Numbered from the stretch's first letter, positions 461-61,183 are shown. The stretch: DNA of 64,000 nucleotides from Saprospiraceae bacterium (GCA_958295895.1 CATQHI010000008.1:119663-183662); one strand, 5' to 3'. Notes: a model not told the origin generated them from the sequence alone. Program-made: numbers and translations.

Positions 461-1086
461 GTACGGAGCGGCAGGCCTACTTCGTGACGGGCATCAGTAC
501 CGAGGTCGGCAAAACGGTCGTCAGCGCCTTCCTCCAACTTGCCCTCGATGCAGACTACTGGAAACCCGTGCAGGCCGGTGACCTTAACTTCGGCGATACT
601 GACCGGGTGAAAGCGTGGACGGGTATGTCCGAAGATCGCTACCATCCCGAGCGCTACCGACTACGTACTCCGGCCAGCCCTCACTACGCCGCACGGCTGG
701 ATGGATTAGCGATCAAACTGGAAGACTTCACGCTACCGGAACCCGGTGGAAGGCCCTTGTTGGTAGAGGGTGCCGGTGGCCTGCTTGTCCCACTGAATGA
801 GCAGCAAACCATGCTCGACTTAGTGCTACATCTGGATCTGCCGGTTATTCTTGTCTCGCGCCACTACTTAGGTAGCATCAACCATACTTTACTAAGTGTG
901 GAGGTGTTGCGGGGCCGCGGGTGCAGGGTGTGTGGAATAGTTTTCAACGGACACAATGCGGAGTCGGCGCGTATCATTCAGCAGTTAACGGGGGTGCCGG
1001 TGATCGCTGAGGTGCCGGAACTTGCGGAGATAAACCCTACAGCGCTCCGCAAGCTTGCGGCTACTCGGCCGCCGAGCGTTGCGTAG
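457..1086 (+). CDS. bioD: ATP-dependent dethiobiotin synthetase
   Basis: 209 aa with a P-loop (GISTEVGKT) and YWKPVQAG and EGAGGLLVP motifs typical of BioD. The GTG start overlaps the hemH stop (GTGA). Confidence 0.85.
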   Translation: MSTERQAYFVTGISTEVGKTVVSAFLQLALDADYWKPVQAGDLNFGDTDRVKAWTGMSEDRYHPERYRLRTPASPHYAARLDGLAIKLEDFTLPEPGGRPLLVEGAGGLLVPLNEQQTMLDLVLHLDLPVILVSRHYLGSINHTLLSVEVLRGRGCRVCGIVFNGHNAESARIIQQLTGVPVIAEVPELAEINPTALRKLAATRPPSVA

Positions 1087-1104
1087 CTTCGCTCGTCGGC
1101 CGAG
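1064..1104. repeat. REP-like GC-rich hairpin with CTTCGCTCGT core
   Basis: Arms ctcggccgccgagcg (1064-1078) and cgctcgtcggccgag (1090-1104) form a 15-bp stem with 1 mismatch and an 11-nt loop. The bioD stop TAG 1084-1086 lies in the loop. Related copies are at 12166-12203, 40755-40840, 47273-47288 and 51403-51485. Confidence 0.7.
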
Positions 1105-1115
1105 TAATCGTAGTT

Positions 1116-2108
1116 ATGAAAGTCTTAATCGTCCGCTTCAGCTCCATCGGCGACATCGTGCTCACCAGCCCGGTCATCCGCTGCGTGAAGGAGCAGACCG
1201 GAGCTGCGGTGCACTTCCTGACCAAGGTGGCCTTCTCTTCTACCCTACAGCATAATCCTTACGTGGACCAACTGTGGACGATTACTAAAGATGTGGAGGA
1301 AGTTGCGGCTGCGCTAGTTGCCGAAGACTTCACTCACCTGATCGATCTCCACGGTAACCTACGTACGCTGGACCTTAAGCAGCGCCTGTTCTGGGGCCAC
1401 CTACGCAGCGGTCGCCGCCCGCCCCGGGTGCATACCTTTAATAAACTCAACTTCCGGAAGTTCTTACTTACTCGCTTTCGGATCGACCGGATGCCGGCGG
1501 TGCACATCGTAGATCGGTACCTGGACGCAGTACGTGCCCTCGGAGTAACGAACGACGGCAAGGGATTGGACTACTTCATTGCTCCGGAAGAGGAGGTCAC
1601 GCCACCGGCAAAAAATTACCTCGCCTTTGTGATCGGAGCAGCGCACGCCACGAAACGGCTGGAGGAAGAACAAATGATTGCACTATGCCGACGTATCTCC
1701 GTACCAATCGTACTACTGGGCGGTCCGGCGGAGCGGGAGCTAGGCGAACGGATTGCTGCCACCGGGGAGTATATCACGAATGGCTGCGGGGCCTATTCCC
1801 TGAACGGATCAGCCGATGTGGTACGCAAAGCAGCCGCTGTGGTAACCCACGATACGGGTTTGATGCACATCGCAGCGGCCTTTCGTAAGCCTATTGTAAG
1901 CGTGTGGGGAAACACCGTGCCGGCACTCGGAATGTATCCCTATATGCCGAAGGGCCCGGCACCCATAGTAGCGGAGGTAGATGGCCTAGCCTGCCGGCCC
2001 TGCTCGAAGATTGGTTACGAAACTTGTCCACAGGGGCACTTCCGCTGTATGCGCGACCAGGACCTGGCGGCGATTGCCCGGGCGGCCCTACTCGCGGTCG
2101 AAACGTAG
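1116..2108 (+). CDS. Glycosyltransferase family 9 (heptosyltransferase-like)
   Basis: 330 aa. The N-terminus MKVLIVRFSSIGDIVLTSPVIR and the C-terminal THDTGLMHIAAA motif are typical of GT9 ADP-heptose:LPS heptosyltransferases. Confidence 0.8.
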   Translation: MKVLIVRFSSIGDIVLTSPVIRCVKEQTGAAVHFLTKVAFSSTLQHNPYVDQLWTITKDVEEVAAALVAEDFTHLIDLHGNLRTLDLKQRLFWGHLRSGRRPPRVHTFNKLNFRKFLLTRFRIDRMPAVHIVDRYLDAVRALGVTNDGKGLDYFIAPEEEVTPPAKNYLAFVIGAAHATKRLEEEQMIALCRRISVPIVLLGGPAERELGERIAATGEYITNGCGAYSLNGSADVVRKAAAVVTHDTGLMHIAAAFRKPIVSVWGNTVPALGMYPYMPKGPAPIVAEVDGLACRPCSKIGYETCPQGHFRCMRDQDLAAIARAALLAVET

Positions 2109-2516
2109 CTCCTGTAGTACCATCCGTTCGCCCTTCTTAGCGACGTAAATGTACACCCGGTATACCCCGTTGGAGGTGGTCAGGTTGCCGATACAGTACT
2201 CGGCGTTGTCGGATTTCGAGGAGCCCTGGTGCACCTGGCTGAAGCCAGAGGGGGTGTTGGCTCCGAAGAAAGCAGCAAGTTTTTCGCGGGCTTGTTCCTT
2301 CGCGTAGGTGTTTTCGTCAGCGAGGATGCTGAGTTCTACTTCCGCGTCCATCATGCCGGTAAGACTAGCCAGATCACCGCTGCCGAGGGCCTTAGTGATG
2401 TCGCCGATGGACTGGGCACTGATAGCCTCCGTCGTTACCGCGAAGGGCGCAAAGGCCAGGGCAAGGGTGAGCAGGAGGGAGTTCATGGGTAAAAGGTTTG
2501 AGTGTAAAGACGGCAA
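2088..2516 (-). CDS. Small secreted protein, DUF4783-like
   Basis: 142 aa with a signal peptide. The C-terminus ...GVYRVYIYVAKKGERMVLQELRFDRE resembles Bacteroidota DUF4783 proteins. This family name is from memory and unverified. The 3' end overlaps the convergent GT9 gene by 21 nt. Confidence 0.6.
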   Translation of the reverse strand: MPSLHSNLLPMNSLLLTLALAFAPFAVTTEAISAQSIGDITKALGSGDLASLTGMMDAEVELSILADENTYAKEQAREKLAAFFGANTPSGFSQVHQGSSKSDNAEYCIGNLTTSNGVYRVYIYVAKKGERMVLQELRFDRE

Positions 2517-2615
2517 CCTAGAAAGCAGCGTTGCTTTTCTTCAAACGCCGAATTAGGTGCCTTAGGTCTATAGGGCGACGTTAAATGTGGGAGATGAAAT
2601 CTGCCCGGGTGGCAT

Positions 2616-2646
2616 TTGGCCATTGCTAGAATTCAGCTTACCTTTG
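2616..2646 (+). promoter_or_regulatory. Putative Bacteroidota-type promoter (-33 TTG / -7 TAccTTTG) for rplS
   Basis: TTG at 2616-2618, a 20-nt spacer, then TACCTTTG at 2639-2646, 38 nt upstream of the rplS ATG. Confidence 0.4.
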
Positions 2647-2683
2647 CGGTCCGCTACGTGCGGTCTTCAAAACTTTAGCAGCC

Positions 2684-3031
2684 ATGGACGCCATCACCTT
2701 CGTACACCAGCAGGTCAGCAAGCAAAAAGAATTCCCCAAGTTCCGGGCCGGCGACACCGTTGCCGTCGACTACATCATCACGGAGGGTGAAAAGTCGCGC
2801 ATCCAGCAGTTCCGGGGCGATGTCATCCAGATCAAGGGCGAGGGCCTCACCAAGACCTTCACCGTCCGTAAGATTTCCAACGCCATCGGCGTAGAGCGCA
2901 TCTTTCCGCTGTCTAGTCCCAGCATCGATAAAATCACCGTGGTCAAGCGCGGTAAGGTCCGTCGTAGTCGCCTGTTCTACCTGCGTGACCGGGTGGGTAA
3001 GAAGGCCCGCATCAAGGAGCGGCGTATTTAA
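2684..3031 (+). CDS. rplS: 50S ribosomal protein L19
   Basis: 115 aa. [11 protein letters not shown]...[16 protein letters not shown]...[20 protein letters not shown] is the canonical L19 sequence. Confidence 0.95.
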
Positions 3032-3055: not shown

Positions 3056-4429
3056 ATGACCACCCACGCCCAGCGCGCCGCCACCTTCCTCCGGGACGAG
3101 CCCCGCACCGACTGGCACGACCAGAGTCTCTGGCACGTCCGCAGTAAGCGCGATGGCAGTATCGCCGGTATTCCGGAGTGGGAGACGTTGCGGCAACTCG
3201 GTTCCGACATTAAGGATAACGTTCTAAGTCATCTCGACACCTACCTGGAGGAGTTCGAGCGGCAGGCCACGGCCAATGGCGTAGTCGTGCACTGGGCTAG
3301 GGACGCTGCCGAGCACAATCGCATCGTACACGGTATTCTCGAACGCCACGGCGTGGACCGCATCGTGAAGTCGAAGTCGATGCTCACCGAAGAGTGCCAC
3401 CTCAACCAGTACCTGGAGGAGCACGGCGTGGAGGTGATCGATACCGATCTCGGGGAGCGTATCATTCAGCTACGCGGCGAGCCACCCAGCCACATCGTGA
3501 TGCCGGCCATCCACCTGAAGAAGGAAGAGATCGGACAGTTGTTCCACGAGCAGCTCGGCACCGACGTAGGAGCCAGCGACCCGCAGTACCTCACCGAGGC
3601 CGCCCGCCAGCACCTCCGTGAAAAGTTCCTGGCGGCGAAGGCCGGTATTACCGGGGTCAACTTCGCCGTAGCGGAAACGGGCGGCATCGTCGTGTGCACT
3701 AATGAGGGCAATGCCGATATGGGCATCCACCTGGCCCCGGTGCAGATTCACTGCATGGGCATCGAAAAGGTCATCCCGCGCGCGGAGCACCTGGGGGTAT
3801 TTACCCGGCTACTGGCACGTAGTGCTACCGGTCAGCCCGTAACCATTTACACCAGTCACCACCACGCCCCTAAGCCGGGCGGCGAGATGCACGTCGTCAT
3901 CGTCGATAACGGGCGCAGCGAGCAGCTTGGCCGCGAGGACTTCCGTAATAGCCTCAAGTGCATCCGTTGCGGCGCCTGCATGAATACCTGTCCGATCTAC
4001 CGGCGTAGTGGTGGTCATAGCTACGATCACACTATTCCCGGGCCCATCGGCAGCATCCTTTCCCCCGGGTTAGACCTAAAGAAACACGGTGATCTGGCCT
4101 TCGCCTCTACCCTCTGCGGGAGTTGCTCGGACGTCTGCCCCGTCAAGATCGACATCCACGCCCAGCTCTATAAGTGGCGACAGATCGTGAGCGAAGCGGG
4201 CCACCTGGCCAGTACCAAACGCATTCCACTCCTCGGAGCCGGTGCCGTGCTGAGCCGCGGCGGCCTGTACAACTTCGTGGGTAAGGCCGCCCGCACGGCC
4301 CTTAACCTCGCCCCCCGCGCCGTAGTCTACAACCGCTTCAACGCCTGGGGGGAAAGCCGCGAGCTCCCGGAGGTACCTACTGAAAGCTTCAAGGAGTGGT
4401 ACGACCGCACCCAGACTTCCGAAGCGTGA
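3056..4429 (+). CDS. lutB: Lactate utilization protein B (LUD domain, 4Fe-4S binding)
   Basis: 457 aa with two ferredoxin-type Cys clusters (CIRCGACMNTCP, CGSCSDVCP) after a LUD domain, as in LutB/YkgF. Confidence 0.85.
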   Translation: MTTHAQRAATFLRDEPRTDWHDQSLWHVRSKRDGSIAGIPEWETLRQLGSDIKDNVLSHLDTYLEEFERQATANGVVVHWARDAAEHNRIVHGILERHGVDRIVKSKSMLTEECHLNQYLEEHGVEVIDTDLGERIIQLRGEPPSHIVMPAIHLKKEEIGQLFHEQLGTDVGASDPQYLTEAARQHLREKFLAAKAGITGVNFAVAETGGIVVCTNEGNADMGIHLAPVQIHCMGIEKVIPRAEHLGVFTRLLARSATGQPVTIYTSHHHAPKPGGEMHVVIVDNGRSEQLGREDFRNSLKCIRCGACMNTCPIYRRSGGHSYDHTIPGPIGSILSPGLDLKKHGDLAFASTLCGSCSDVCPVKIDIHAQLYKWRQIVSEAGHLASTKRIPLLGAGAVLSRGGLYNFVGKAARTALNLAPRAVVYNRFNAWGESRELPEVPTESFKEWYDRTQTSEA

Positions 4430-6165: not shown

Positions 6166-6483
6166 GTGGACGTCGAGGCTGCCACCACCGACCTCCTGCG
6201 CCAGGACTTCGATCTGCCCGCCGGAACTTTAACCGAAGCCGAGCTACTGGACTGGCTAGCTATGTGCGTGGCTGAGTTACTGCGTACGCGCCCTGCGTAC
6301 CTGATGAGTCTCTGCTACACCCTGGATCTCGATCAAGAAAGCGTGGCGGGGGCCCTCCACCCGGCTGCACCGGCGGCCGCGCCCACCGGTCTTGCCCGCT
6401 TGCTGTACGAGCGGCAGTGCGCCCGCGCCCACACCAAGGCCAGCTACACCGCGCCGGCCCTCACTAGCCGGGATGCCTGGTAG
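6166..6483 (+). CDS. Hypothetical protein
   Basis: 105-aa ORF with a GTG start 6 nt after the preceding stop. No recognisable motif. Its 3' end overlaps the methyltransferase start. Confidence 0.4.
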   Translation: MDVEAATTDLLRQDFDLPAGTLTEAELLDWLAMCVAELLRTRPAYLMSLCYTLDLDQESVAGALHPAAPAAAPTGLARLLYERQCARAHTKASYTAPALTSRDAW

Positions 6484-8799: not shown

Positions 8800-9860
<1,061 letters not shown>

Positions 9861-10579: not shown

Positions 10580-11331
10580 TCGTTCGGTAGTGTATCGTTC
10601 GCGGTAGTATCCATTCGTTCGGGCGGGGACGCAGGTGCGGCGGCGGCGGCGGCCAAAGGCAACCACCCGGGGGGCAGGTACATCCGGCCTGCGCGGAGGT
10701 AAGCAAGCTGCCGGTAAGGGTATTGAGTTCGCGCACCTTCGTCTGAAAATTACCCGTCAGCCGGTCGCGGAATAACTTAAGGTTGTCAATAAGGTCGGTG
10801 GTTTCCAACTCAGGCAGCTCCGCCTCCAGCCACTGCCGAAAGCGTTTGGCAAAGGTAGGGCTCTGTCCGTTGGTGCTGATGGCCACCTTGAGCGGACCGC
10901 GGGTGACGATGCTGCCCAGGTAGAAATCACAGAGCTCGGGCGTATCGGCGATGTTGCACACCCGCCGTGCAGCTTTTGCCGCCTCGTACACGGCTTGGTT
11001 GACCGCGCGGGATGTCGGTAGCCGCTACGATAAGGTCAGCCTGTAAAACGTCCTCCTTTTGAAATTCTCGGTCATACCACACCACCCGTCCCCCACTGCT
11101 GGTAGACCACACGCCCGCAGCCCCTACCCCAAATGACGCAGCCCCCCGGCCGTACTTGTCTAGGGCAGCGCGTAACTCCTCTCCCATCCAGGGTGCTACG
11201 ACGGTCACCCGGGCATTCGGGCTACTCTTTAGGATGAAGCGCAGCTTCTCCTCTCCGACCTGACCGGCCCCTACGACGAGGAGTTGCAGGCGGTCGAGAC
11301 GGAAGAAGGCGGGGTAGAGGGGATTGGTCAT
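10542..11331 (-). pseudogene. Precorrin-2 dehydrogenase / sirohydrochlorin ferrochelatase (CysG N-domain, SirC-like); one frameshift as sequenced
   Basis: ORF 10927-11331 (LLVVGAGQVGEEK Rossmann fold ...LIVAATD) continues in ORF 10542-10991 (AVNQAVYEAAKAARRVCNIADTPELCDF...AISTNGQSP). The shift lies within 11001-11015. The last roughly 45 codons read through a GC repeat and overlap cysH. Confidence 0.7.
10621..10638. repeat. Copy of dispersed GC-rich repeat (gggcggggacgcaggtgc)
   Basis: This 18-mer is identical to 50817-50834. Its reverse complement occurs with 1 mismatch at 35631-35648. Confidence 0.8.
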
Positions 11332-11337: not shown

Positions 11338-12094
11338 TTATACTTGAGTAAGCACGCTCGCTAAACTCCTAAATTTCTCGTGCTGGCGCACCGTCTCCCC
11401 TAAAACAATGATTCCGGGGCCCCGGTCCCGCTCGGCAGCTACCCGCGCGGCAATGTCGTTGACCGTACCCACCCAGCAGTGCTCGTCGGGTCGGCTGCCG
11501 TTCTGGATCACCATGGCGGGGAGTTCTCCCTTTCCTTCCGCGTCCCAGAGGGCACAGATCTGGTCAAGGCGCGCCAGCCCCATCAGGATAATGACCGTAG
11601 CGGATGATTTAGCGGCGCGAAACAAGTCCTCACTCAGCCCTCCGTCGCGGGTATGGGCCGTGAGCACCCAGAAGCTATCGGCGTAGCCCCTGCTGGTGGG
11701 TGCCACGCCCTGTAGCTCCGGCAGACTAATGCAGCTACTGATGCCCGGCACTACGGTGACGGGAATGCCGTGTTGCTCGGCGTAGGCCTTTTCCTCCTGC
11801 CCCCGCCCGAAGACGAAGGGGTCTCCCCCCTTGAGCCGCACTACGTGGCCGTACTCCAGGGCACACGCTACGATCAGCGCATTGATTTGCTCCTGCTTCT
11901 TGTAGTGACAGCCCGCCCGCTTGCCCACGAAGATGTGCTGGCAGTGGGGCCGGGGTCTCGGTCAGTAGCTCATTGCTGCTCAGGGCGTCGTACAGCACGA
12001 CATCCGCCGTAGCCAGCGCGCGCAATCCCTTGCGGGTGATGAGGTCGGGATCGCCGGGGCCGGCGCCGATGAGGGATAGTTTAGGGGTAGGCAT
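11338..12094 (-). pseudogene. cobA: Uroporphyrinogen-III C-methyltransferase; one frameshift as sequenced
   Basis: The N-terminus [29 protein letters not shown] (ORF 11735-12094) joins HIFVGKRAG...[15 protein letters not shown]...VVPGISS (ORF 11338-11928). The extra base lies in tggggccggggt, 11945-11956. Confidence 0.85.
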
Positions 12095-12110: not shown

Positions 12111-12260
12111 GATATGCGATTCTCGATATGCGATTCTCGATATGCGAGGTGCTCCGCTGTTGTCTGCTCGCTTCGCTCGTGCCGCTAGACGAGCGAAGCG
12201 AGCATGCCTTTGCGGTAGCCACCTCATACCTCGCATATCGAGAATCGCATATCGCATATC
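12111..12260. repeat. 150-bp nested palindromic (MITE/REP-like) element between sulfite reductase and cobA
   Basis: The outer perfect 26-bp inverted repeat is gatatgcgattctcgatatgcgaggt (12125-12150) and its complement (12228-12253). The left arm has a tandem 14-nt unit gatatgcgattctc x2 (12111-12138). The inner perfect 14-bp hairpin is gctcgcttcgctcg (12166-12179) / cgagcgaagcgagc (12190-12203). Confidence 0.85.
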
Positions 12261-12261: not shown

Positions 12262-14382
12262 TTACGCCTTATAGTACTCACTCACCACCGTCTTGCCCAA
12301 CTGCCGCTCCCGCGTAGCAATCGCCCTGCTCACAAAGGCCCGCGCCTGGGCGAGATAGTCAGTGACAAAGTCCGCGGTAGGCTCGTTGCGCTTGATCCCC
12401 AGCACCGTAGCCGCAAAGGGAGCTACCTCCGGAAACTGCTCCCCGAAGTAGGTTTGAAAATCATTCAGGATACCGATGTGGGTGTTACACTTCTGGTCTT
12501 CGGCTAGCAGCAGGGCCTTGGCGGCGGTGACCATGGCGGAGTAAGCGTGGTAACCGGCATCGGCGTAGGCTGCGCCCTCCAGGCTGCGGCCGGCAGCAAC
12601 GAGCTTGTTGCTGCTGTCGTTCAGGATGGCACCGATGACGTCCAGGCTCACCCCGGCGCACTCTCCTACGCCGATCTCCTGCTTGTAGTCTTCGTCCTGG
12701 CCCCAGTCGTAGAATTCCCCGTCGGCGATCTCGCTCGTATCGCCCAGCGGTTTGAGCAGTCCGTAGAAGTAGCGCTTGCCCTGGCGTACGGCGTAATCGT
12801 TGTAGTACTCCCCCTCACTGGCCTGTAGCCGGTAGTCCTCGAAGAGGATACGTACCACATCGGGCACCCGCCGGGTCGGCACCTTAATCACCTTCTCGGC
12901 GATGAAGCCACGTCCGTCGGGGGCAATGCCGCCTCCCACCACCACCTGCATGGCCGGCGCGATTTTATCCCCCACGCGGATGCTCGAGCCGTGGAAGCCT
13001 ATGTTGGCCGCCATGTGCTGTCCGCAGGCATTCATACAGCCGCTAATCTTGATGCGGATGTCGTCTTCGGTGACCAGCTCGGGATACTCGTCACGTACGA
13101 GGGCCTCCAGCACCTGTGCCAGCCCCGTCGAGTTAGTTACGCCCAGGGCACAGGTATCGGTGCCGGGGCAGGCCGTGATGTCGGCCGTGGTATCGTAGCC
13201 GGGTAGGCCCAGGTCCAGGGCGTACAGGGCATTGAAGAGGTGCGGCAGGGCGGTAGGCGGCACGTACCGTAATATCATCCCCTGCTGCACGCTCAGGCGG
13301 ATGTCATCACTGGCGTGGGTACGGATCACCTCAGCCAGTAGACGCGCCTGCTCGGCCTCTAGGTTACCGAGCGGAATACGGATGGCCACGGCGCGATATC
13401 CTCCTTGCTTTTGTTCTAGTACATTGGTCTGCAACCACTCTTCGTACAGGGCGGGGTGCGCAGGTGCAAGCGGCGGGAAGTTGTCACCGGGTACACTCCC
13501 CAGCTTCGGCACCAGCGACTCGTCGATGGCATACTCCCTGTGCGCGATGGCGGGCCACTCCTCGTGCACCAGCTCCATAAAGCGGTCGAAGCCCAGGTCC
13601 TTGATCAGGAACTTCATACGGGCCTTCATGCGCTTCTCCCGCTCCCCGTAGCGGTCGAACACCCGCAGGGCCGCCTCCTGGAACGGGATGATCTGATCGG
13701 CCGGCAGGAACTCGAAGGCCGTATGGGCTACCATCGAGACGGCACCGAGTCCGCCCCCCACGACCACCTTGAAGCCACGCTGCCCGTCCTTGATGCGGGG
13801 GATGAAACCGAAGTCGTGGAAGTAGGTAAAGGCCGAGTCCTTATCACTGCTCGAAAACGCCGGCTTGATCTTACGGCCCATCTCCTGGCAGATCGGGTTG
13901 CGCAGGAAATAATCGAAGGTGGCGTATACGTAAGGACTCACGTCGAAGAGCTCGTCGGGGTCCACGCCGGCCAGCGGGCTGGCGGTGAGATTGCGCACCG
14001 TATTGCCACAGGCCTCGCGGGCGGTCATGCCGGCAGCCACCAGCTCCTCCCAGATGGCGGGGCTGTCGTTGAGCTTCACATAGTGCATTTGCACGTTCTG
14101 CCGGGTGGTAATGTGCAGCCGCCCATTGGTGTACTTCTCGGAGATATTGGCCAGCGCAATGAGCTGGTCGGGCGTGATGTAGCCGAAGGGGATTTTGGTC
14201 CGAAACATGTGTACCCCTACCTGCCGCTGCCCGTACACGCCCCGGGTCAGGCGGTAGTGCTTAAAGCGGTCCTCATCTTCCTTGCCCCGCTGGTAGGCGT
14301 AGATGCGGTCCTTCAGCTCTTCGATATCGGCCCGGTTGGCGGCCTCAGTCCGGTTCGGGGCAGCGGTGTCACTCGTTCTCAT
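12262..14382 (-). CDS. sir: Assimilatory sulfite reductase hemoprotein (ferredoxin-type NirA/Sir family) with C-terminal helical extension
   Basis: 706 aa. The siroheme/4Fe-4S cysteine motifs ACPGTDTCALG and ISGCMNACGQH are present, and the gene lies in an operon with cobA, sirC and cysH. Confidence 0.85.
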   Translation of the reverse strand: MRTSDTAAPNRTEAANRADIEELKDRIYAYQRGKEDEDRFKHYRLTRGVYGQRQVGVHMFRTKIPFGYITPDQLIALANISEKYTNGRLHITTRQNVQMHYVKLNDSPAIWEELVAAGMTAREACGNTVRNLTASPLAGVDPDELFDVSPYVYATFDYFLRNPICQEMGRKIKPAFSSSDKDSAFTYFHDFGFIPRIKDGQRGFKVVVGGGLGAVSMVAHTAFEFLPADQIIPFQEAALRVFDRYGEREKRMKARMKFLIKDLGFDRFMELVHEEWPAIAHREYAIDESLVPKLGSVPGDNFPPLAPAHPALYEEWLQTNVLEQKQGGYRAVAIRIPLGNLEAEQARLLAEVIRTHASDDIRLSVQQGMILRYVPPTALPHLFNALYALDLGLPGYDTTADITACPGTDTCALGVTNSTGLAQVLEALVRDEYPELVTEDDIRIKISGCMNACGQHMAANIGFHGSSIRVGDKIAPAMQVVVGGGIAPDGRGFIAEKVIKVPTRRVPDVVRILFEDYRLQASEGEYYNDYAVRQGKRYFYGLLKPLGDTSEIADGEFYDWGQDEDYKQEIGVGECAGVSLDVIGAILNDSSNKLVAAGRSLEGAAYADAGYHAYSAMVTAAKALLLAEDQKCNTHIGILNDFQTYFGEQFPEVAPFAATVLGIKRNEPTADFVTDYLAQARAFVSRAIATRERQLGKTVVSEYYKA

Positions 14383-16804: not shown

Positions 16805-18727
16805 ATGCGTACACTCACCGATCTGGGGCGCTTTGCCGCCTTTTCTACCCTATTCCTACTGCTCGGACACGGCCTGTCGGTGCGTAACCTCCTGGCCCCA
16901 CCCCCCGAACCACGCCTGGAAGTGGTACTGGCCGGGGTGCAGCAGCAGTTTCGGACCGACCTCGATACCCTGCTGCTGACGGTGGCGGAGTACGCGGAGG
17001 CAGCCGCGGTGGGTGCCCCGGCTTCCACGCTACGGACCCTGCACCTGCGGTCGCGGCTACACTTTAAGCGCTGCGAGTACCTGCTGGAATACATCGAGCC
17101 GGAGACGGTGAAACGCTACCTCAACGGCGCGCCGCTGCCCAAAATCGAGCCCGGGGTGCCCGAGGTCGTGGTGGTCGAACCGGTGGGCCTACAGGTACTC
17201 GACGAGCTGGCTTTTGCCGATAGCCTGGACTACGGGGCGCTCGGCGAACAGACCCGGCTACTGTACCGCACGCTCACGAAGGTCATCCCCTATATGCAGG
17301 GGCGTAGGCTGCAGCACCGCCACGTCTTCGAGGCGGCACGCGAGGAGGTAATCCGGATGTTCACCCTGGGCGTGACCGGCTTCGATACGCCGGGATCGAT
17401 AGCTGCCCTGCCCGAGGCGCTGGCGAGTCTGGAGCGGCTGGAAGCTGTATATATAGGTTACGGGGCGCACGTGGCACGGGGGGATGCGGCACTGGATGAG
17501 ACGATCCGCACCGCGTTCCGTGAGGGGCGGAAGCTGTTACGGGTCGCTGACTTCGACACCTTCGACCGTCTGGCCTTTCTGCAACTCACCGCCGATCCGC
17601 TCCTTGCCGCTCTGCCGCGGGCGCAGGCGCTGCTTGGTATCGAGTCCGTAGCGGACGACAAGCGGCTGGCCCGACCGGTCAATCAACTAGCCACCTCCCT
17701 CTTCGCCCCCGACTTCCTGAACGCCGACTACTACGACCGGCTGAGCGACTCGCCCTACGACGCCGAGCGGCGGGCACTGGGCGAGTTGCTCTTCTTCGAC
17801 CCCGTACTGAGCGAGGAGCTAAGCATGAGCTGCGCCAGCTGTCACCGGCCGGAACTGGCCTTTACCGACGGAAAGGCCCTGAGCGTGCGCCGCAATGCCC
17901 CCACTCTGGTCAATAGCGTATACGCCGAGCGGTACTTCTACGACCTGCGCGAGGAGTTTCTGGAGCGGCAGGCCCGCCACGTGGTGATGGACGCCCACGA
18001 GTTTGCCACCGACTTCGGCTCCATCGAGGCGCGGCTGCGGCAGAGCGATACCTACCGCTTGCTGTTCGACTCGGCCTACGCCGACCAGCCGCAGTACGCC
18101 CTGAGCGCCTGGAGCGTGAGTGATGCCCTGGCCCACTATGTGAGTAACCTACGGGGCTTCGATAGCGCCTTTGATCGCTATGCCCGCGGGGAAACCGAGG
18201 TGCTGGAGCCAGGCGTACGCCGGGGATTCAACCTGTTCATGGGCAAGGCCGCCTGCGGCAGTTGTCACTTCGCTCCTACCTTCAGCGGACTCGTACCGCC
18301 CTTCTATCGGGAAAACGAGAGTGAGGTGCTGGGCGTGCCGGCGGCCGTGCGCTGGGAGGGGGCTGCGGTAGATCCCGATCCGGGCCGCATTGCTAGCGGT
18401 CGGCCGGAGGATGAGGCCTACTTTCACGCCTATGCCTTCAAGACGCCGACGGTGCGCAACGTGACCGTCACCGCGCCCTACATGCACAATGGCGTGTACT
18501 TGACCCTTGCTGAGGTACTGGACTTCTACAACCGCGGCGGCGGTAAGGGCATCGGTATATACCTGGAGCACCAGACGCTACCCTTTGATTCCCTAGGGCT
18601 CACCGCGCCGGAGATGGCCGATATCGTTACCTTTATGGAGTCCCTGACCGACTATAAACAGCTGGACCATCGCCCCACCGAGCTACCCCGCTTCGAGCGG
18701 CGGGCGGAGTGGAACGGGCGCAACTAA
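16805..18727 (+). CDS. Di-heme cytochrome c peroxidase / MauG-family protein with about 300-aa N-terminal extension
   Basis: 640 aa. Two CxxCH motifs (CASCHRPELAFTDG and CGSCHFAPTFSG) and PTVRNV..TAPYMHNG are typical of the CCP/MauG family. The N-terminal third has no motif I recognise. Confidence 0.8.
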   Translation: MRTLTDLGRFAAFSTLFLLLGHGLSVRNLLAPPPEPRLEVVLAGVQQQFRTDLDTLLLTVAEYAEAAAVGAPASTLRTLHLRSRLHFKRCEYLLEYIEPETVKRYLNGAPLPKIEPGVPEVVVVEPVGLQVLDELAFADSLDYGALGEQTRLLYRTLTKVIPYMQGRRLQHRHVFEAAREEVIRMFTLGVTGFDTPGSIAALPEALASLERLEAVYIGYGAHVARGDAALDETIRTAFREGRKLLRVADFDTFDRLAFLQLTADPLLAALPRAQALLGIESVADDKRLARPVNQLATSLFAPDFLNADYYDRLSDSPYDAERRALGELLFFDPVLSEELSMSCASCHRPELAFTDGKALSVRRNAPTLVNSVYAERYFYDLREEFLERQARHVVMDAHEFATDFGSIEARLRQSDTYRLLFDSAYADQPQYALSAWSVSDALAHYVSNLRGFDSAFDRYARGETEVLEPGVRRGFNLFMGKAACGSCHFAPTFSGLVPPFYRENESEVLGVPAAVRWEGAAVDPDPGRIASGRPEDEAYFHAYAFKTPTVRNVTVTAPYMHNGVYLTLAEVLDFYNRGGGKGIGIYLEHQTLPFDSLGLTAPEMADIVTFMESLTDYKQLDHRPTELPRFERRAEWNGRN

Positions 18728-22527: not shown

Positions 22528-22550
22528 GGGGCGGGGCCGCAGGTGCGGGG
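22528..22550. repeat. Copy of dispersed GC-rich repeat in the susC-susD spacer
   Basis: ggggcggggccgcaggtgcgggg. It differs from 61158-61183 by 2 substitutions over 26 nt and contains the dyad CCGCA-GG-TGCGG. Confidence 0.8.
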
Positions 22551-25650: not shown

Positions 25651-25677
25651 GTTTGCACCGGCGCACCCGCCCCCTGC
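25651..25677. repeat. Copy (reverse orientation) of dispersed GC-rich repeat, intergenic
   Basis: The reverse complement gcagggggcgggtgcgccggtgcaaac resembles 13447-13472 and 43161-43180. Confidence 0.6.
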
Positions 25678-30651: not shown

Positions 30652-31337
30652 AGCAGCGCCCGTTTTTTCGACTGGGTCACGAAGGGCGGGTTCAGGTAGA
30701 ACGGTTCGTAGGCGGCAACGGGTGGGCGGCGGCGCGCAGGTGCAAGCAGTAGGGAGGCGCTACAGGCGTAGGGCCCGGAAAAGCTAAAGGCATTATCCAC
30801 CGGATCGAGCGCCTCGCGCAGTCGCTGCTGACCGGGTCCACACACCAGCATCCGACCCAGTCCCTCGCCCCCCAGCAGTCGTCCGCGCCAGGTCGGATCG
30901 GTGAGGCGCACGTTCATCACCCCGCTGCGGGCCTCCGGCCGGGCCGTGGCGGTAAACACCTGTCCGTACACTTCCCCCCGGCGGGAGGTGATGGTGGCCA
31001 GGATATGGTCCTTTCCCGCCGTATCGCGGGCCGCGTAGGCCAGGGCCGTAAGTGTGGGGACTACCGAAAAGTCCAGTTCGGGCAGCGCCATACATAATCC
31101 TTTGACGGTAGCGGCTCCGACGCGCAGGCTGGTGTAACTGCCCGGCCCGTCGCTGAGTACGATTTCGGTAAGCCGGTCCATACCGATACCCGCTTCGCGT
31201 ACCGCCTGCTGGATAAATAGCGTGAGGTGACTGGCGTGCTGGTGCACTTCGGTCGCCGTGACCTCCGCCAGGATCTTTCCTGCGTACGCCACGGCGACCG
31301 AGCATACGTCGGTGGCGGTTTCCAGCAGTAACTCCAT
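30648..31337 (-). CDS. tsaB: tRNA t6A biosynthesis protein TsaB
   Basis: 229 aa. The N-terminus LLLETATDVCSVAV and the GPGSYTSLRVG motif match the TsaB/YeaZ family. The stop overlaps the truA start. Confidence 0.85.
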   Translation of the reverse strand: MELLLETATDVCSVAVAYAGKILAEVTATEVHQHASHLTLFIQQAVREAGIGMDRLTEIVLSDGPGSYTSLRVGAATVKGLCMALPELDFSVVPTLTALAYAARDTAGKDHILATITSRRGEVYGQVFTATARPEARSGVMNVRLTDPTWRGRLLGGEGLGRMLVCGPGQQRLREALDPVDNAFSFSGPYACSASLLLAPARRRPPVAAYEPFYLNPPFVTQSKKRALL

Positions 31338-31663
31338 CAGTCGAATAGTTCGGTGGGCGACCAGAATACGGTGGCAAAGTCCCGTACCGTGGCATCCACC
31401 ACGGCTACCCCCTCGGCCTCCAGGCGCTCCTGCATCAGGGTGGGGGTGGCGAAGTGGTTGCGTCCGCTCAATTCCCCCCGACGGTTGACCACCCGGTGGG
31501 CGGGTACGTCATCGGCAACGGTGAGGCACTGAAACAAGGCCCAACCCACCATGCGGGCGCTGCCCAGGGTGAGGTAATCGGCAATAGCCCCGTAGGTCGT
31601 GACGCGGCCGGGGGGAATGAGGCGGGTCACGTCGTGTACGTCGGCGATGTACGGTGCGGCCAA
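31337..31663 (-). CDS. Alkyltransferase-like (ATL) protein, MGMT DNA-binding domain without catalytic Cys
   Basis: 108 aa. IPPGRVTTYGAIA matches the MGMT fold, and the active-site motif reads PAHRVV instead of PCHRV. Confidence 0.75.
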   Translation of the reverse strand: MAAPYIADVHDVTRLIPPGRVTTYGAIADYLTLGSARMVGWALFQCLTVADDVPAHRVVNRRGELSGRNHFATPTLMQERLEAEGVAVVDATVRDFATVFWSPTELFD

Positions 31664-35422: not shown

Positions 35423-35972
35423 ATGACGCTAAAAGACCATCCAGGAGCTAATCAAGCTGGTCGCCAAAACCGAGATTACGGAGTTTAAGTACAAGGACGC
35501 CGAGGTGGCCGTGCACATTCGCGGCAAGTCCTACGTGCCCCCCAGTAGCGGCAGACTAGCCACTACGGCAGCCCCCTCCATCATCAACGTGCCCGCCGCG
35601 GCCCCGGCCATTGCCCCGGCCTTTTCCGCCGCACCCGCGTCCCCGCCCGCTGCTGCCGCACCCGCCGCTGCCACCACCGGCGGCGCTCATGCCGATGCGG
35701 GAGGCACGAGTGGCCAGGAAGATAGTGGCAAGCTCGTGCAGATTAAATCGCCCATGATCGGCACCTTCTACCGCTCTTCCTCGCCGGACAAGCCGGTGTA
35801 CGTGAAGGTGGGTGACCGCGTTGCCAAGGGGGATACGGTCTGTGTTGTGGAGGCCATGAAACTCTTCAATGAGATCGAGTCGGAAGTAGCCGGCAAAATC
35901 GTCAAGGTGCTCGTGGAGGACGCCCAGCCCATCGAGTACGATCAGCCGCTATTTTTGGTAGACCCCGCATAA
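35423..35972 (+). pseudogene. accB: Biotin carboxyl carrier protein of acetyl-CoA carboxylase; N-terminal frameshift as sequenced
   Basis: ATG 35423 gives MTLKD. After skipping base 35438 the frame reads [28 protein letters not shown], the conserved BCCP N-terminus. The track ORF begins only at GTG 35505. The C-terminus carries the EAMKLFNEI biotinyl-lysine motif. Confidence 0.8.
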
Positions 35973-38539: not shown

Positions 38540-38697
38540 AGTGATCGACTTACTTCAGGGAAGTGTAGCGGGCAGTTTGCTTAGCCCGCCGGAAGATAAG
38601 GTAATCAACCGGACCCTCAAAGGTCCGAAGTCCTCGGTTGCCGCCCCTTCTCTACCACCACGTACATTGCACCAGCGACCCCGCCCGTTTACCCACC

Positions 38698-39783: not shown

Positions 39784-39815
39784 CCGTAAATTCGCCCCTC
39801 ACCAGCCTATGGCCA

Positions 39816-47272: not shown

Positions 47273-47288
47273 AACGAGCGAAGCGATC
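47273..47288. repeat. REP-like core unit (reverse orientation)
   Basis: The reverse complement of aacgagcgaagcgatc is gatcgcttcgctcgtt, which matches 51403-51419 (gaccgcttcgctcgtta) with 1 mismatch. Confidence 0.6.
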
Positions 47289-49623: not shown

Positions 49624-50553
49624 ATGCTTCAGGAGTACTACTACCACGGCAAACTACTGCTGACCGGCGAATACTTCGTGCTCGACGGCGCGACCGCCCT
49701 GGCCATTCCCACCCGGCCGGGCCAGCGCTTTACGGTTACGCCGTATCCCTTCCCGACCCGCTACGATCTGACGTGGTCGGTCGGCGGTGTCAGCACTTCC
49801 CAGCCGATAAGTAGCTACTCTTTCCATGCCGGGGAATGGAAGGATCCGCGGCCGGGCGGGAAGCCGGTTCGGGACCGCCTGCTGCAACTATTTCACGCGG
49901 CGGAGCAGCTCAGGCCGGGCTGTACGGAGGAGGTACTGGTCGGTAAGCACGTAGACTGTTACCTTGAGTTCGAGCCTAACTGGGGACTGGGTAGTAGCTC
50001 CACGCTAGTCAGCTTTCTGGCCGAGTTTCTCGGGATGGACCCCTACGCCCTGCTGGCCGGCACCTTCGGCGGTAGCGGCTACGATCTAGCCTGCGCCACC
50101 GCCGCGGGCCCCGTCCTGTACGAGCGAGGAGAATCCGGCAGGCCCCTGGTCACCCCCATCGACTGGCGAACGGACTGGCTCCGGCAGACCTACTTCGTGC
50201 ACCGCAACCGAAAACAGGATAGTCGGCAGGGTATTCGGGCGTACCGAGCGGCGGACGTGGCACCCCAGGTGGCCGGGGAGGTAAGTGAGCTCACCGGTCT
50301 TTTACAAGCTACGCTGCACCTGCGCGCCGCCGCCCAACTGCTCGCACGGCACGAACGACTTATTGCCGAAGCGCTAGCGTTGCGCCCCGTGCAGGAAACA
50401 TTTCCCGACTTCCCCGGTACACTCAAAAGCCTGGGTGCCTGGGGCGGCGACTTCATCTGGGCCCTGAGCGAGCAACCTAGGGAACGGCTGCGGGCCTACT
50501 TCGCCGAGCGGGGCTACGGCACCTTCATCCCCTACCACGATATGGCACTATGA
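49624..50553 (+). CDS. GHMP-kinase-fold protein, GYDIA-family-like
   Basis: ATG 49624 (MLQEYYYHGKLLLTGEYFVLDGA...). It has a GHMP motif II-like NWGLGSSST and GSGYDLACA in place of the GYDIA signature. The family name is from memory and unverified. Confidence 0.6.
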   Translation: MLQEYYYHGKLLLTGEYFVLDGATALAIPTRPGQRFTVTPYPFPTRYDLTWSVGGVSTSQPISSYSFHAGEWKDPRPGGKPVRDRLLQLFHAAEQLRPGCTEEVLVGKHVDCYLEFEPNWGLGSSSTLVSFLAEFLGMDPYALLAGTFGGSGYDLACATAAGPVLYERGESGRPLVTPIDWRTDWLRQTYFVHRNRKQDSRQGIRAYRAADVAPQVAGEVSELTGLLQATLHLRAAAQLLARHERLIAEALALRPVQETFPDFPGTLKSLGAWGGDFIWALSEQPRERLRAYFAERGYGTFIPYHDMAL

Positions 50554-51281
50554 GTAAATGGAAGGAGGCGGTGATCACGCGCACCCAGGACCGGAGCCCT
50601 ACGGTACGCAGTTTCTGGGTGGCCCTACCCGACCGCGAGCGGCTTGACTTTCGGCCCGGACAGTTTCTGACCCTCGACCTGCCCATCAGCGAGAACCGCC
50701 GCGAGCGCTGGCGCAGCTACTCCATTGCCTCGCCCCCCAACGAGACCAACGAAGCCGAGCTCTGCATCGTACAGCTTCCGGGCGGGCGGGGCACCAAGTA
50801 CCTTTTCGAGGAGGCCGGGGCGGGGACGCAGGTGCTGACCAAGGAGCCAGGGGGCGTATTTACCCTACCCGAACGGCCGCTCGACCATGACCTAGTGATG
50901 GTCTGTACGGGCACCGGGGTGGCGCCCTTTCGGTCCATGCTCTACCAGCGCCTGCCCCGGGAGAAACGCCACTTTCACCTCATCTTCGGCTGCCGGCGGC
51001 CGGAGGATTTGCTCTACCGGGAGGAATTCGAGCGACTGGGCGAGCGGTATCCCAACTTCACCTATACGACTACGCTGAGCCGTGAACTTCCCGGAGAAAC
51101 TACCTCATTTGAAGCCCTAGCAGGTTACGTGCACCAGGTGTACCAGCGCGACTACGCTACGCCCCGCAGCGATCTGCGGTTTTACCTCTGTGGCTGGAGT
51201 GCGATGGTCGACGAGGCGCGCGCCAGTCTCCTCGGTATGGGTTACGCCGAGCAGCAGGTTATTTTGGAGCTCTACGGCTAG
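50550..51281 (+). CDS. Ferredoxin-NADP reductase-type FAD/NAD(P)-binding oxidoreductase
   Basis: 243 aa. It has the RSYSIAS FAD-binding motif and the GTGVAPFRSM NAD(P)-binding motif. The ATG overlaps the upstream stop (ATGA). Confidence 0.8.
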   Translation: MSKWKEAVITRTQDRSPTVRSFWVALPDRERLDFRPGQFLTLDLPISENRRERWRSYSIASPPNETNEAELCIVQLPGGRGTKYLFEEAGAGTQVLTKEPGGVFTLPERPLDHDLVMVCTGTGVAPFRSMLYQRLPREKRHFHLIFGCRRPEDLLYREEFERLGERYPNFTYTTTLSRELPGETTSFEALAGYVHQVYQRDYATPRSDLRFYLCGWSAMVDEARASLLGMGYAEQQVILELYG

Positions 51282-51402: not shown

Positions 51403-51485
51403 GACCGCTTCGCTCGTTAGCGGCAATCAGTACAATGCTGCCTCCGGCTGCGCTGCTGTTCGGTGGCGAACCAAGCCTCGTGAGG
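51403..51485. repeat. REP-like imperfect palindromic element downstream of tRNA-Met
   Basis: The left unit gaccgcttcgctcgttagcgg (51403-51423) and right unit tcggtggcgaaccaagcctcgtgagg (51460-51485) resemble the two arms of 40755-40840. Confidence 0.55.
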
Positions 51486-52557: not shown

Positions 52558-53544
52558 TTAGGCCAGAAGCCGAAGGTAAAGTGCGTGGTAGGCGGCGGTC
52601 ATTTTCCGCACGTCAAACCGTTCCACCGCATAGGTACGACACACGGCGCGATCGAGGGCGGCGGCCCGGGGGAGGGCGGCGGCAAGTCCTAGCACATCCC
52701 CCACCGGCACGAGGGTACTCACCCGATCGTCCAATAACTCCGGTGCGGCCCCGCTCGCAAATCCCGCCACCGGCGTACCGCAGGCCAGCAGCTCCGGAAT
52801 CACCAGGCCGAAGGGCTCGTCCCACACCGAGGTAAACAGCCCCACCGCCACGGCCGTATGGGGCAGTAACTCCGCGCCTCCCAGGTGGCCCAGGTAAACC
52901 GCGTCTTCTCCCAGGAGAGGCAGCAGTTGTGTTGCGTGGTAATCCTTATCCACCACCGGACCGGCCAGTTCCAGCGTGTAGCCCGCCCGTCGTGCTGCCA
53001 GCACGGCCAGGTGCGGAGCCTTCTCCGGCGTGATCCGTCCGTACCACAGGGCGGTACACGCAGGTGCAACCCTAGCAAAGGGCCACTCCCCGGGATCAAT
53101 CCCGTTATGAATTACCGGCACCGGCCCCGTATACCGTACCCAACGCTGCGCCAGGTGCGCGCTGATGGCTACGAATGTCGATCCGCAGAGCAGTCGCGAG
53201 GCCACGGCACCCGGCAGTAAGCGCCGGTAAGGCGGCGTGTGCAGGGTAGTGACCACCGGAAAGGGCAGGCGAAACGAAAGCAGCGTGGGCAGAAAGTTGA
53301 TCGTGTTGTTGTGCAGCAGATCGATGGGGGCGGTGCGTAGGTAGCGCAGTAACGTTCGGTAATCTTCAAAATCAGTGATCAGCTCCACCCCCGGCAGCGG
53401 ATCGGAGCCCCGGCGGGCAAAGACGGTCACCGTCTGGCCTAGCTCCGCCAGCCCCCGGGCGAGTTGCACGGTGTGTCGCTCCAGCCCTCCCGCATAGGGT
53501 TCGGTGAGGGGGTACTCCAGGGGGGCCAGCAGCGCCAGTCGCAC
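52558..53544 (-). CDS. Glycosyltransferase family 4 (GT-B fold)
   Basis: 328 aa. It has the N-terminal GGLERHTVQLARGL motif and the C-terminal EPFGLVIPELLACGTPV motif (E-x7-E type). The start is GTG. Confidence 0.8.
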   Translation of the reverse strand: MRLALLAPLEYPLTEPYAGGLERHTVQLARGLAELGQTVTVFARRGSDPLPGVELITDFEDYRTLLRYLRTAPIDLLHNNTINFLPTLLSFRLPFPVVTTLHTPPYRRLLPGAVASRLLCGSTFVAISAHLAQRWVRYTGPVPVIHNGIDPGEWPFARVAPACTALWYGRITPEKAPHLAVLAARRAGYTLELAGPVVDKDYHATQLLPLLGEDAVYLGHLGGAELLPHTAVAVGLFTSVWDEPFGLVIPELLACGTPVAGFASGAAPELLDDRVSTLVPVGDVLGLAAALPRAAALDRAVCRTYAVERFDVRKMTAAYHALYLRLLA

Positions 53545-58749: not shown

Positions 58750-58775
58750 CCGGCAAGGTTACGAAATCTTAACGC

Positions 58776-60179: not shown

Positions 60180-60255
60180 GCAGCCAGCTTAGCAGCCCAC
60201 CGTAGGAAACAGCGGCAGAACAAGAACGACAAAATCGGTGAGATAAAGTGTCCCT

Positions 60256-61143
60256 TCACTTGCGCTTGCTCAGAAAAATACCCACCAACACCAACGCCAC
60301 CGCCGGCAGTTGCTGCCACAGTACCCCCTCCCCGTCGGCTAGTCCCCAAATAAGTGCCACTACCGGGATCAAATAACTCACCGTGCTGGCAAACACCGCC
60401 CCCGCCCGTTGGATTAAGCGGTAGTAGACCAGACCGGCCAGCACCGTACTACCGAGGGCCAGGATACTGACATACGCCAGCGCCGTTGCACCCGCGGTGC
60501 CCGCCCGCATCACCGCCGGTATGACCCCCGACGCACCCACCGCATACCCCAGGGCCGGCAAGCCCACCAGGAAGTAACTCACCACCGTAATGGTCAGGGC
60601 CGGTACCTCGCGGAGGTAATTAGCCACCAGATTGGCGGCCGTACCATAGCACAGACAGGCCAGTAGCACCAGTCCAGCATACCCTAGCTGCTGGGTACTA
60701 TTTCCCTCCCCCGCCGGGGAAATGTAGGCCAGTGCTAGCGCGCCCGCAAGCCCCAGCACGATACCGGTCACCTGCTGCCGCACCGGCCGGTTGCGAAAGG
60801 CCAGCCAGGCCACCAGGAAGGTGCACAGCGGCGTGAGGCTGCTCAGCATCCCCGTCAGACTACTACTTAGGTACTGCTGCGCGGTGGGAAACAGAAAAGC
60901 CGGCAGGGCTGTACCGGTGAGCCCCACTACGATCAGCAGCGGGAGCTGGCGTAGCCGTACCCGCCGTAGGTGAATCGCGGCCAGGGGGGCCAGCGCCAGG
61001 GCGGAGATACCCAGTCGCAGCACCCCCACCTGCCGGGCGGTAAATACCTCCAGCCCCCACTTGATGAGCACGTAGCTACTGCCCCAGATTAGACTCAGGC
61101 CGAGTAGCGTAAGAAAGTCGCGTAGCGTGGGGCCCTCCTGCAT
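60256..61143 (-). CDS. DMT-superfamily (EamA) transporter
   Basis: 295 aa with 10 predicted TM helices in two EamA-like halves. Confidence 0.8.
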   Translation of the reverse strand: MQEGPTLRDFLTLLGLSLIWGSSYVLIKWGLEVFTARQVGVLRLGISALALAPLAAIHLRRVRLRQLPLLIVVGLTGTALPAFLFPTAQQYLSSSLTGMLSSLTPLCTFLVAWLAFRNRPVRQQVTGIVLGLAGALALAYISPAGEGNSTQQLGYAGLVLLACLCYGTAANLVANYLREVPALTITVVSYFLVGLPALGYAVGASGVIPAVMRAGTAGATALAYVSILALGSTVLAGLVYYRLIQRAGAVFASTVSYLIPVVALIWGLADGEGVLWQQLPAVALVLVGIFLSKRK

Positions 61144-61155
61144 GCCGGCGAAGGT

Positions 61156-61183
61156 ACGGGCGGGGCCGCGGGTGCGGGGCGGG
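61156..61183. repeat. Copy of dispersed GC-rich repeat, G-quadruplex-capable, intergenic
   Basis: acgggcggggccgcgggtgcggggcggg. The first 20 nt are identical to 43161-43180. It has five G3-4 tracts with loops of 1-4 nt. Confidence 0.8.

Follow-up and report, generated by a model that had tools for sequence, protein, structure and literature searches.

A dispersed 18-nt word of Lewinellaceae genomes, conserved in genes and spacers, as a possible recognition sequence of small hairpin elements

What keeps a GC-rich word of 18 nt nearly unchanged in unrelated genes and in the spacers between them? The question is raised by a 64,000-nt stretch of DNA (GCA_958295895.1, CATQHI010000008.1:119663-183662; "the window" denotes this whole stretch) from a Saprospiraceae bacterium. 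The best matches of its GHMP kinase gene are from Neolewinella (Bacteroidota), the genus to which the window is assigned. A preliminary description of the window had reported a repeat scattered over intergenic DNA and unrelated genes, on either strand and in more than one frame. That repeat is real: every string quoted for it is present in the window, and its distribution was confirmed. The motif is lineage-specific, family-wide in Lewinellaceae and genuinely over-represented. Beyond what had been described, it forms the inverted termini of hairpin elements, is shared throughout the family and is conserved at many orthologous positions.

The motif, its excess and its taxonomic range

The consensus is GGGCGGGG-N-CGC-N-GGTGC, usually trailed by A-R-R-G. 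This dispersed, GC-rich and non-palindromic word of 18 nt is made of three blocks (GGGCGGGG, CGC and GGTGC), with 16 fixed bases and two free positions; the gap between the first and second blocks is longer in some copies, here called variant-spacer copies. A set of 275 kb of Neolewinella sequence, selected without regard to the motif, gave 34 hits at ≤1 mismatch, about 1 per 8 kb. Among the Neolewinella hits, the first free position was C>A>>G,T and the second was A>G>>C,T, the base ahead of GG being A in 21, G in eight, C in three and T in two. A GCA-GG-TGC dyad had been placed in the core of the repeat; it is not conserved, as the base before GG varies, and a single unit has no more structure than shuffles. 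A G-quadruplex pattern had also been pointed out. Four or more G-tracts are indeed present at 61158-61183, but only in that copy; the consensus has two G3+ tracts.

The window contained seven canonical copies and about nine variant or partial ones. The string GGGCGGGGNCGCRGGTGC had six exact hits, with essentially none in shuffles, and at ≤3 mismatches it had 14 hits vs. 2.0 expected (0 of 100 dinucleotide shuffles reached 14). The shorter string CGCRGGTGC was observed 13 times, with 3.2 expected. Almost all exact dispersed repeats of ≥16 nt in the window belonged to this motif, apart from a local palindrome at 12.1 kb. Among them were a 22-mer (30723/50315, reverse complement), a 20-mer (43161/61156) and an 18-mer (10621/50818); the strings given earlier for the 18-mer were right, while its second copy lies at 50818-50835 rather than 50817-50834. 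In Markov simulations (order 1, 3, and 5) the longest dispersed repeat averaged 16–17 nt, with a maximum of 20. Together with the dinucleotide shuffles and synonymous-codon shuffles, these simulations ruled out chance or base composition as the source of the motif.

A comparison of the 50-nt flanks of the window copies found no common sequence beyond about 24 nt, and a longer element surrounding each of them was rejected. Among the listed copies minus the bioD copy, nine were on the plus strand and six on the minus strand. A word of 18 nt without strand skew does not resemble Chi, a likeness that had been suggested, or an FtsK orienting polar sequence (KOPS). Regular spacing was also rejected: the gaps between exact copies are 7.5–13 kb, and the pattern was lost once near-exact copies were counted.

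A motif scan covering 185,579 species genomes matched at least 113 stretches. Among the matches listed, 53 of 113 were from Lewinella, Neolewinella or Lewinellaceae, with the named isolates N. persica, N. aurantiaca, N. marina, N. maritima, N. aquimaris, and N. litorea, and these Lewinellaceae included genomes of only 45–54% GC. Outside Lewinellaceae, the matches listed were single hits from taxa such as the high-GC Actinobacteria, in line with chance. The overall density in Neolewinella/Lewinella was about 1 per 8–10 kb; one 21-kb N. xylanilytica locus (L160) had no hit at ≤2 mismatches. In several N. aquimaris copies GGAGC replaces GGTGC (L158 9817, 13111, 17207, and 19134; L159 4071), an ending that may be a species "dialect" of the motif.

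Viral contigs gave 40 hit stretches; 39 contained one hit each, which resembles noise, and a phage origin was rejected. An assembly or consensus artefact, the other outcome envisaged at the outset, was set aside because independent isolate genomes carry the motif, although the window does carry 1-nt homopolymer errors. Compared with three relatives, single-base indels in G or T homopolymer runs occur at 39794, 41164, 41246, 41306, 42138 and in the Pyr_redox gene near 8800-9833. They fragment accA, dapA and the pyridine-nucleotide oxidoreductase gene, and they look like long-read assembly errors rather than pseudogenes.

The copies in the window are listed below, with gene labels backed by Pfam.

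907..924, plus strand: partial copy TTGCGGGGCCGCGGGTGC in a bioD-like gene; its 16-mer is common to the 43165 and 61160 copies
6367..6384, minus strand: one-mismatch copy GGGCGCGGCCGCCGGTGC in a small open reading frame (ORF) without a Pfam match
10621..10638, plus strand: canonical copy GGGCGGGGACGCAGGTGC in the C-terminal tail of a sirC-like gene, read APASPP, 41 nt before the cysH start
13447..13472, plus strand: variant copy with a 2-nt spacer, GGGCGGGG-TG-CGCAGGTGC, in a sulfite reductase gene, read LAPAHPAL
17037..17056, minus strand: right half only, CCGCAGGTGCAGGG, in a di-haem peroxidase gene; the weakest member
22529..22546, plus strand: canonical copy in the 69-nt susC-susD spacer, with the reverse-complement form 27 nt upstream of the susD start
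25655..25672, minus strand: one-mismatch copy between the divergent susC and Wzz-like genes, 32 nt ahead of the Wzz-like start at 25705
30723..30744, plus strand: 22-mer variant TGGGCGGCGGCGCGCAGGTGCA in tsaB, read LAPARRRP
35631..35648, minus strand: canonical copy in the Ala/Pro linker of accB, read APASPP
38669..38686, minus strand: canonical copy with T at position 13, non-coding, 11 nt upstream of the corA start codon
43161..43182, plus strand: canonical copy inside an AsmA-like gene, read TGGAAGA; its 20-mer is identical to the 61156 copy
50315..50336, minus strand: reverse complement of the tsaB 22-mer, in a GHMP kinase gene, read LHLRAAAQ
50818..50835, plus strand: canonical copy inside an FNR-like oxidoreductase gene, read GAGTQV
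53046..53070, plus strand: variant-spacer copy in a GT4 glycosyltransferase gene, read VAPACTAL
60488..60505, minus strand: variant-spacer copy inside an EamA gene
61156..61183, plus strand: canonical copy with an extra GGGGCGGG after it, in the 79 nt that separate the EamA gene (start 14 nt away) from a divergent lipoprotein-type gene at 61223

Further exact 16-mers recur in the window at 31537/47469 and 32645/43137, namely AGGCCCAACCCACCAT and CCGCCCGGTCGCCTAC with its reverse complement. Over-represented 9- and 10-mers were CTGCGCCAG (11 vs. 1.3 expected) and GAAGGTGCCG (8 vs. 0.6 expected).

Hairpin elements and turnover in spacers

In the Lewinellaceae loci, 36 of 61 exact copies had no open frame within 150 nt on either side, i.e., they were intergenic, and the intergenic enrichment was 10-fold or greater. 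All 11 close pairs (<600 nt) were forward-then-reverse, i.e., convergent. One of the 11, in L056, was a coding look-alike located in the linkers that flank the peripheral subunit-binding domain of a dihydrolipoamide acyltransferase. An inner inverted partner (≤2 mismatches) was present for seven of 59 exact copies (about 12%), whereas three control configurations gave 0, 0, and 1.

Convergent pairs bound small elements of 94–400 nt. Paired elements with inverted motif termini were found in L075 (94 nt), L137 (96 nt), L112 (124 nt), L136 (125 nt), L051 (144 nt), L147 (185 nt), and L046 (226 nt). The paired elements fold as long hairpins (z -4.6 to -7.7), their flanks carry a run of T on the left and of A on the right, and they occur in spacers of both the divergent and the co-directional type. 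Between the terminal repeats, conservation of the sequence is poor. Inner-side sequence beside the motif was common to several copies, paired and solo, and solo copies often had 20–30 nt of motif-adjacent sequence in common.

Syntenic loci aligned to the window came from close relatives (L001-L003, L157, L161, and L162, of which L157 and L162 represent one genome) and from N. aquimaris and N. xylanilytica (L158-L160 and L163). The susC-susD copy at 22529 was also found in L157, L161, and L162 and was absent in N. aquimaris; because it is missing from the 20-nt spacer of that species, it is an insertion. Found only in L157 were an insert of 28 nt with the motif after the peroxidase gene and one of roughly 100 nt after cysH. 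L162 had an additional copy downstream of corA that is not in the window or L001. The susC-susD spacer, the L157 inserts and this L162 copy thus display, at orthologous sites, the presence/absence polymorphism by which miniature inverted-repeat transposable elements (MITEs) are judged. Every intergenic gain observed was a 28–100-nt insertion, never point changes.

Other non-coding copies were conserved across the genus while their flanks diverged. The corA-upstream copy was intact 11–15 nt ahead of the start codon in the window, L161, L162, and N. aquimaris L163, with both flanks diverged. The susC/Wzz-like copy was exact in L162, and N. aquimaris had a copy in the same region. In L161 (about 15650-15720), the orthologue of the window 25655 copy is interrupted by a palindromic insert of 27 nt, CATGTGGGGAGGGGGCCCCACATG.

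A second intergenic repeat, (GCTA[AG])ACGAGCGAAGCGAGCA, occurs in the window at 1085-1095, 12165-12205, 47275-47285, and 51406-51416. Relatives carry it as tandem arrays that repeat every 60 nt or so (L047 3700-3840; L116 2995-3125 and 6954-6995). The second repeat follows both tRNA genes and adjoins the main motif at seven of 111 copies. Its 12165-12205 copy is a hairpin with a 16-bp stem. Around that hairpin, a left side of tandem GATATGCGATTCTC units and a right side with an inverted copy make up a large palindrome (12111-12250), which separates the gene at 11338-11928 from the sulfite reductase gene (12262-14382), at whose 3' end it lies. In Bacteroidetes, subclass 2.6 of the transposases (RAYTs) associated with repetitive extragenic palindromic (REP) sequences has atypical REPs, with GCTAG and a CGCGAGCG hairpin (PMC6006769, Table S1). 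The second repeat resembles this description more closely than the main motif does.

Copies inside genes

Under a synonymous-shuffle null, in which the amino acids of the window coding sequences (CDS) were kept fixed and synonymous codons were resampled or permuted, 0.02–0.04 exact copies were expected vs. four observed (in round terms, 0.03 vs. three or four), and none of 300 shuffles reached four. The coding copies lie on both strands and in all frames; the frames and peptides reported earlier (LAPARRRP, LHLRAAAQ, PLAPAHPALY, and RVAPACTALW) were right, and the gene labels agreed with Pfam.

Alignment with orthologues, one of the checks that the preliminary description had proposed, revealed conservation of silent sites. 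Across the window and L001-L003, 16 of the 18 motif codons whose residue is conserved were identical in the four genomes, vs. 6.8 expected from the same codons elsewhere in the region (a codon-matched background; P about 5e-6). The sole variable base of the AsmA-like and FNR-like copies in these genomes was a free position of the motif. Both the AsmA-like copy at 43161, in which only motif position 13 varies, and the GT4 copy at 53046, in which the position-13 base is again variable, were kept in L001-L003. The EamA 60488 site reads GCACCYGCG-TA-CCCCGCCC in L002 and L003.

Retention across species extended to the accB linker, the 6367 small ORF, the GT4 and EamA variants and the tsaB/GHMP 22-mer. 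In accB, the motif copy was the best-conserved part of an indel-rich linker (four genomes). The orthologues of the 6367 copy in L157 (exact) and L158 were preserved despite strongly diverged flanks. In L161 and L162 the tsaB 22-mer was unchanged, and in N. aquimaris almost so; at the GHMP kinase site the codons CTG CGC GCC GCC GCC were invariant in six species with a protein identity of only 57–91%. At the 17037 peroxidase site, CCGCAGGTGCA was retained in L157.

Three window look-alikes (≤3 mismatches) were rejected as chance: 28571, in the GGxxGA motif of CrcB, 57389 and 43360. Their silent sites vary between species, and because of this drift they serve as negative controls. The apparent 43163+/43360- "pair" in the AsmA-like gene was likewise rejected, its second arm being an ordinary conserved coding segment.

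At the FNR-like copy, the loops of N. aquimaris and N. xylanilytica are of equal length, read AAVGTEL and AEPGTRV and differ at about nine of 19 bases. This copy was created by substitution, because two outgroups have a same-length loop with other residues and bases. The sulfite reductase copy, found in L157 as well, replaces a segment of unchanged length, since the N. aquimaris segment is equal in length and different in its residues. The coding copies tested against outgroups (FNR-like and sulfite reductase) are not insertions, and an in-frame insertion of the kind made by Rickettsia palindromic elements (RPEs), one of the likenesses first suggested, does not describe copies that overlay same-length segments. 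The 10621 copy in the sirC tail arose in the window lineage, because the orthologous segments of L157 and N. aquimaris are not the motif. A second sirC copy, in a loop, is common to L157 and N. aquimaris and is deleted from the window. Point mutations under selection may have produced the coding copies, or short-patch conversion with other copies as donors may have done so. They are not explained by the encoded proteins.

Some predicted secreted proteins, which are not homologous to one another, have N-termini that run through an element end and read LLCTC[GV]PA|Q: in L050 (about 3820-3932, minus strand), L076 (2488-2560, plus strand, with a second copy on the minus strand), L079, L121, L136, and L141. 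This reading agrees with the Bacteroidetes Q-rule (PMC5837995). The "signal peptide" of the L157 Pyr_redox gene is a gene-call artefact through an inserted element, and the remaining signal-peptide-like N-termini may be co-opted elements or further artefacts. A signal-peptide-coding module was rejected as a general explanation: about eight of 115 copies fit, one case is the gene-call artefact and the frame skew is too small, with the C-T-C frame used by 13, the +1 frame by 10 and the +2 frame by four of the 27 copies that have a long open frame after the motif. In practice, element ends generate spurious signal-peptide-like N-termini in gene calls, and the silent-site conservation is a DNA-level constraint that codon models would misread.

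Readings of the motif and comparison with known systems

The common denominator of the spacer and genic copies is selection or drive on the 16 fixed bases as DNA, which is why the word is taken here as a putative protein recognition site. The account that we place first, and hold tentatively, makes the motif the recognition sequence and terminal repeat of a MITE-like family, or one like the hairpin-forming REP doublets (REPINs), kept at the DNA level as a putative protein-binding site. The 18-bp word would be the recognition unit of a Lewinellaceae-specific repeat family. Two convergent inverted units would be the termini of small non-autonomous hairpin elements of 94–400 nt, which would enter and leave intergenic spacers, most units persisting as solo copies. 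The word would act at the DNA level, where a sequence-specific protein would bind or process it, perhaps the cognate transposase of the elements or a host factor grown dependent on the sites. A protein site would account both for the integrity of the 16 fixed bases amid decaying flanks and for the silent codon positions that are kept in the coding copies. Over-representation, restriction to Lewinellaceae, inverted pairs, insertion polymorphism, orthologous conservation, silent-site constraint and the origin of at least one coding copy via substitution were all shown.

Several observations weigh against the repeat-family account. About 88% of exact copies are solo, leaving a paired fraction of only about 12%. 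A single unit does not fold beyond shuffles (z = +0.8, -1.8, +0.1) and has a 3-bp stem only. No GT[AG]G or CGTC tag was found at the unit end, CGTC appearing only where the free base is T or A, and the six bases on the 5' side have no consensus. The flanks of nine paired elements had no direct repeat indicative of a target-site duplication. No RAYT-like or HuH-Y1 ORF was present in the about 650 kb of loci compared, and no whole-genome search was made. Convergent copies 1–2.4 kb apart enclosed ordinary genes and no transposase in the loci at hand (whole genomes were not searched). On the extragenic location expected of REPs the picture is mixed, with 36 of 61 copies clearly intergenic and conserved copies within genes (AsmA-like, FNR-like, accB, tsaB, GHMP kinase, GT4, and EamA); REPs and MITEs are expected neither within CDS nor to appear there by length-neutral substitution, and the motif does both. 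Lastly, protein binding and the identity of the protein are entirely inferred.

A second reading, which we consider unlikely, is that the word is a chromosome-wide signal written into DNA, CDS included, by selection or a conversion-like drive, the hairpin elements being one vehicle only. In that case, it would have no described precedent in Bacteroidota as an uptake-signal-like or chromosome-organising site.

Next in probability, also unlikely but a live rival, is a "self" word analogous to the DNA uptake sequences (DUS) of Neisseria and the uptake signal sequences (USS) of Pasteurellaceae. Uptake or recombination machinery would prefer motif DNA, the word would accumulate by mutation and biased transfer where proteins tolerate it and then be conserved, and the paired elements would be secondary carriers. 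The likeness to uptake signals had been raised in the preliminary description, and it fits the coding copies: these arose by substitution in variable loops, tails and linkers without change in length, were then held at silent sites and occur in all frames and both orientations. AT-rich flanks around intergenic copies and a family-specific word with the dialect-like GGAGC variant of N. aquimaris agree with it as well. DUS and USS have a density of about 1 per kb, however, as opposed to about 1 per 8–10 kb here, and the likeness does not fit this density, the strong intergenic enrichment or intergenic gains that are all 28–100-nt insertions. Nor does it fit the inner-side sequence that paired and solo copies have in common next to the motif, and a literature search found no report of sequence-specific uptake in Bacteroidota.

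An operator or 5'-leader element of one abundant regulator, placed mainly just upstream of envelope and transport gene starts and with the coding copies as internal or antisense sites, is improbable. The reverse-complement form does lie 11–41 nt before the starts of corA, susD, cysH and the EamA and Wzz-like genes, and the corA position is kept in four genomes. In that orientation 20 of 61 copies are ≤50 nt upstream of a start vs. 11 of 61 in the other, but the bias is weak (P = 0.095), and a fixed orientation upstream of start codons was rejected as a trend that is suggestive but weak. The regulator would need hundreds of sites per genome, many conserved copies lie deep within genes on either strand, and the adjacent genes have no functional theme in common. 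Rfam had no family match in the window or 11 loci.

Invertible promoters are common in Bacteroidota, and the copies could be the inverted repeats of such promoters, flipped by a master recombinase. The convergent inverted pairs that bound 94–400 nt near gene starts and the copy beside a Wzz/Wzy polysaccharide locus and a susC gene are of the right kind for this lineage. We nevertheless regard this as very improbable, as about 88% of exact copies have no partner, genic copies exist, orthologous loci show no inverted orientation variants and no recombinase gene is adjacent to the pairs.

A by-product of coding and composition, i.e., of Ala/Pro linkers (APASPP), Gly/Ala-rich peptides or a signal-peptide c-region (..LLCTCGPA|Q) combined with biased codons, is scarcely credible and is already contradicted as a general explanation: phase-0 copies read A-P-A, the L056 "pair" sits in acyltransferase linkers, several predicted secreted proteins agree with the Q-rule and 28571 and 57389 are compositional in kind, but the synonymous-shuffle null excludes this account for the exact copies, non-coding copies are the majority, open frames after the motif split 13/10/4 and the proteins with the signal-peptide-like reading are not homologous, the L157 case being an artefact. 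Only a minority of copies, all look-alikes, are explained in this way.

Work on short interspersed repeats has concentrated on Proteobacteria and cyanobacteria, with hardly any on Bacteroidota. A literature search found no description of a short interspersed or REP-type repeat in Lewinella/Neolewinella. Of the known systems, the cyanobacterial HIP1 sequence GCGATCGC is highly iterated in genes and spacers and conserved beyond codon constraints; it differs in being an 8-bp perfect palindrome that is far denser, whereas the motif is 18 bp and asymmetric. RPEs are likewise found in frame within unrelated protein-coding genes. They are, however, palindromic insertions of 100–150 nt that add residues, whereas the motif swaps bases in same-length loops (FNR-like, sulfite reductase).

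With DUS and USS the motif has more in common: like them, it is specific to a family and has dialects, occurs on either strand and in every frame, overlies protein segments that tolerate it, is kept more strictly than coding alone requires, is in some cases arranged as inverted pairs and is over-represented in genes and spacers. Unlike them, it is about ten times sparser, longer (18 nt in fixed blocks) and strongly intergenic, and it spreads in spacers by insertion.

The Correia elements of Neisseria are bacterial MITEs in which terminal inverted repeats of about 20 bp bound 100–400 nt. The motif-bounded elements are similar in having terminal inverted repeats around a short non-coding element, in lying near gene starts in intergenic DNA and in being polymorphic in presence and absence. 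They differ in having no target-site duplication and, in the loci compared, no related full-length insertion sequence, and in their poorly conserved interior, and solo terminal repeats of the motif remain intact while the rest decays.

The likeness to REP/REPIN-RAYT systems includes hundreds of short GC-rich units per genome, mostly intergenic, which occur as singlets and as inverted doublets that fold into hairpins about 100 nt long. In both cases, too, inheritance is vertical, copies persist for long at orthologous sites and there is no target-site duplication. Some published REPs of another subclass have GGGCGGGG/CCCCGCCC stems (PMC6006769, Table S1), which is a resemblance and not a test. 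Unlike a REP unit, which is an imperfect palindrome of 20–40 nt, the motif unit forms no hairpin and is without the GT[AG]G/CGTC tag. Only about 12% of exact copies are in doublets, there are conserved genic copies, some of them via substitution, and a RAYT was not found in the compared loci.

The behavior of the family is REPIN/MITE-like in spacers and uptake-sequence-like in genes, two behaviors that are usually separate and are united here. The family lends itself to the question of how such words persist: as selfish DNA, as binding sites used by the host or via biased recombination. Overall, it is best filed under the REP/MITE kind, and the constraint at the DNA level that it shows inside genes is both unusual and well supported.

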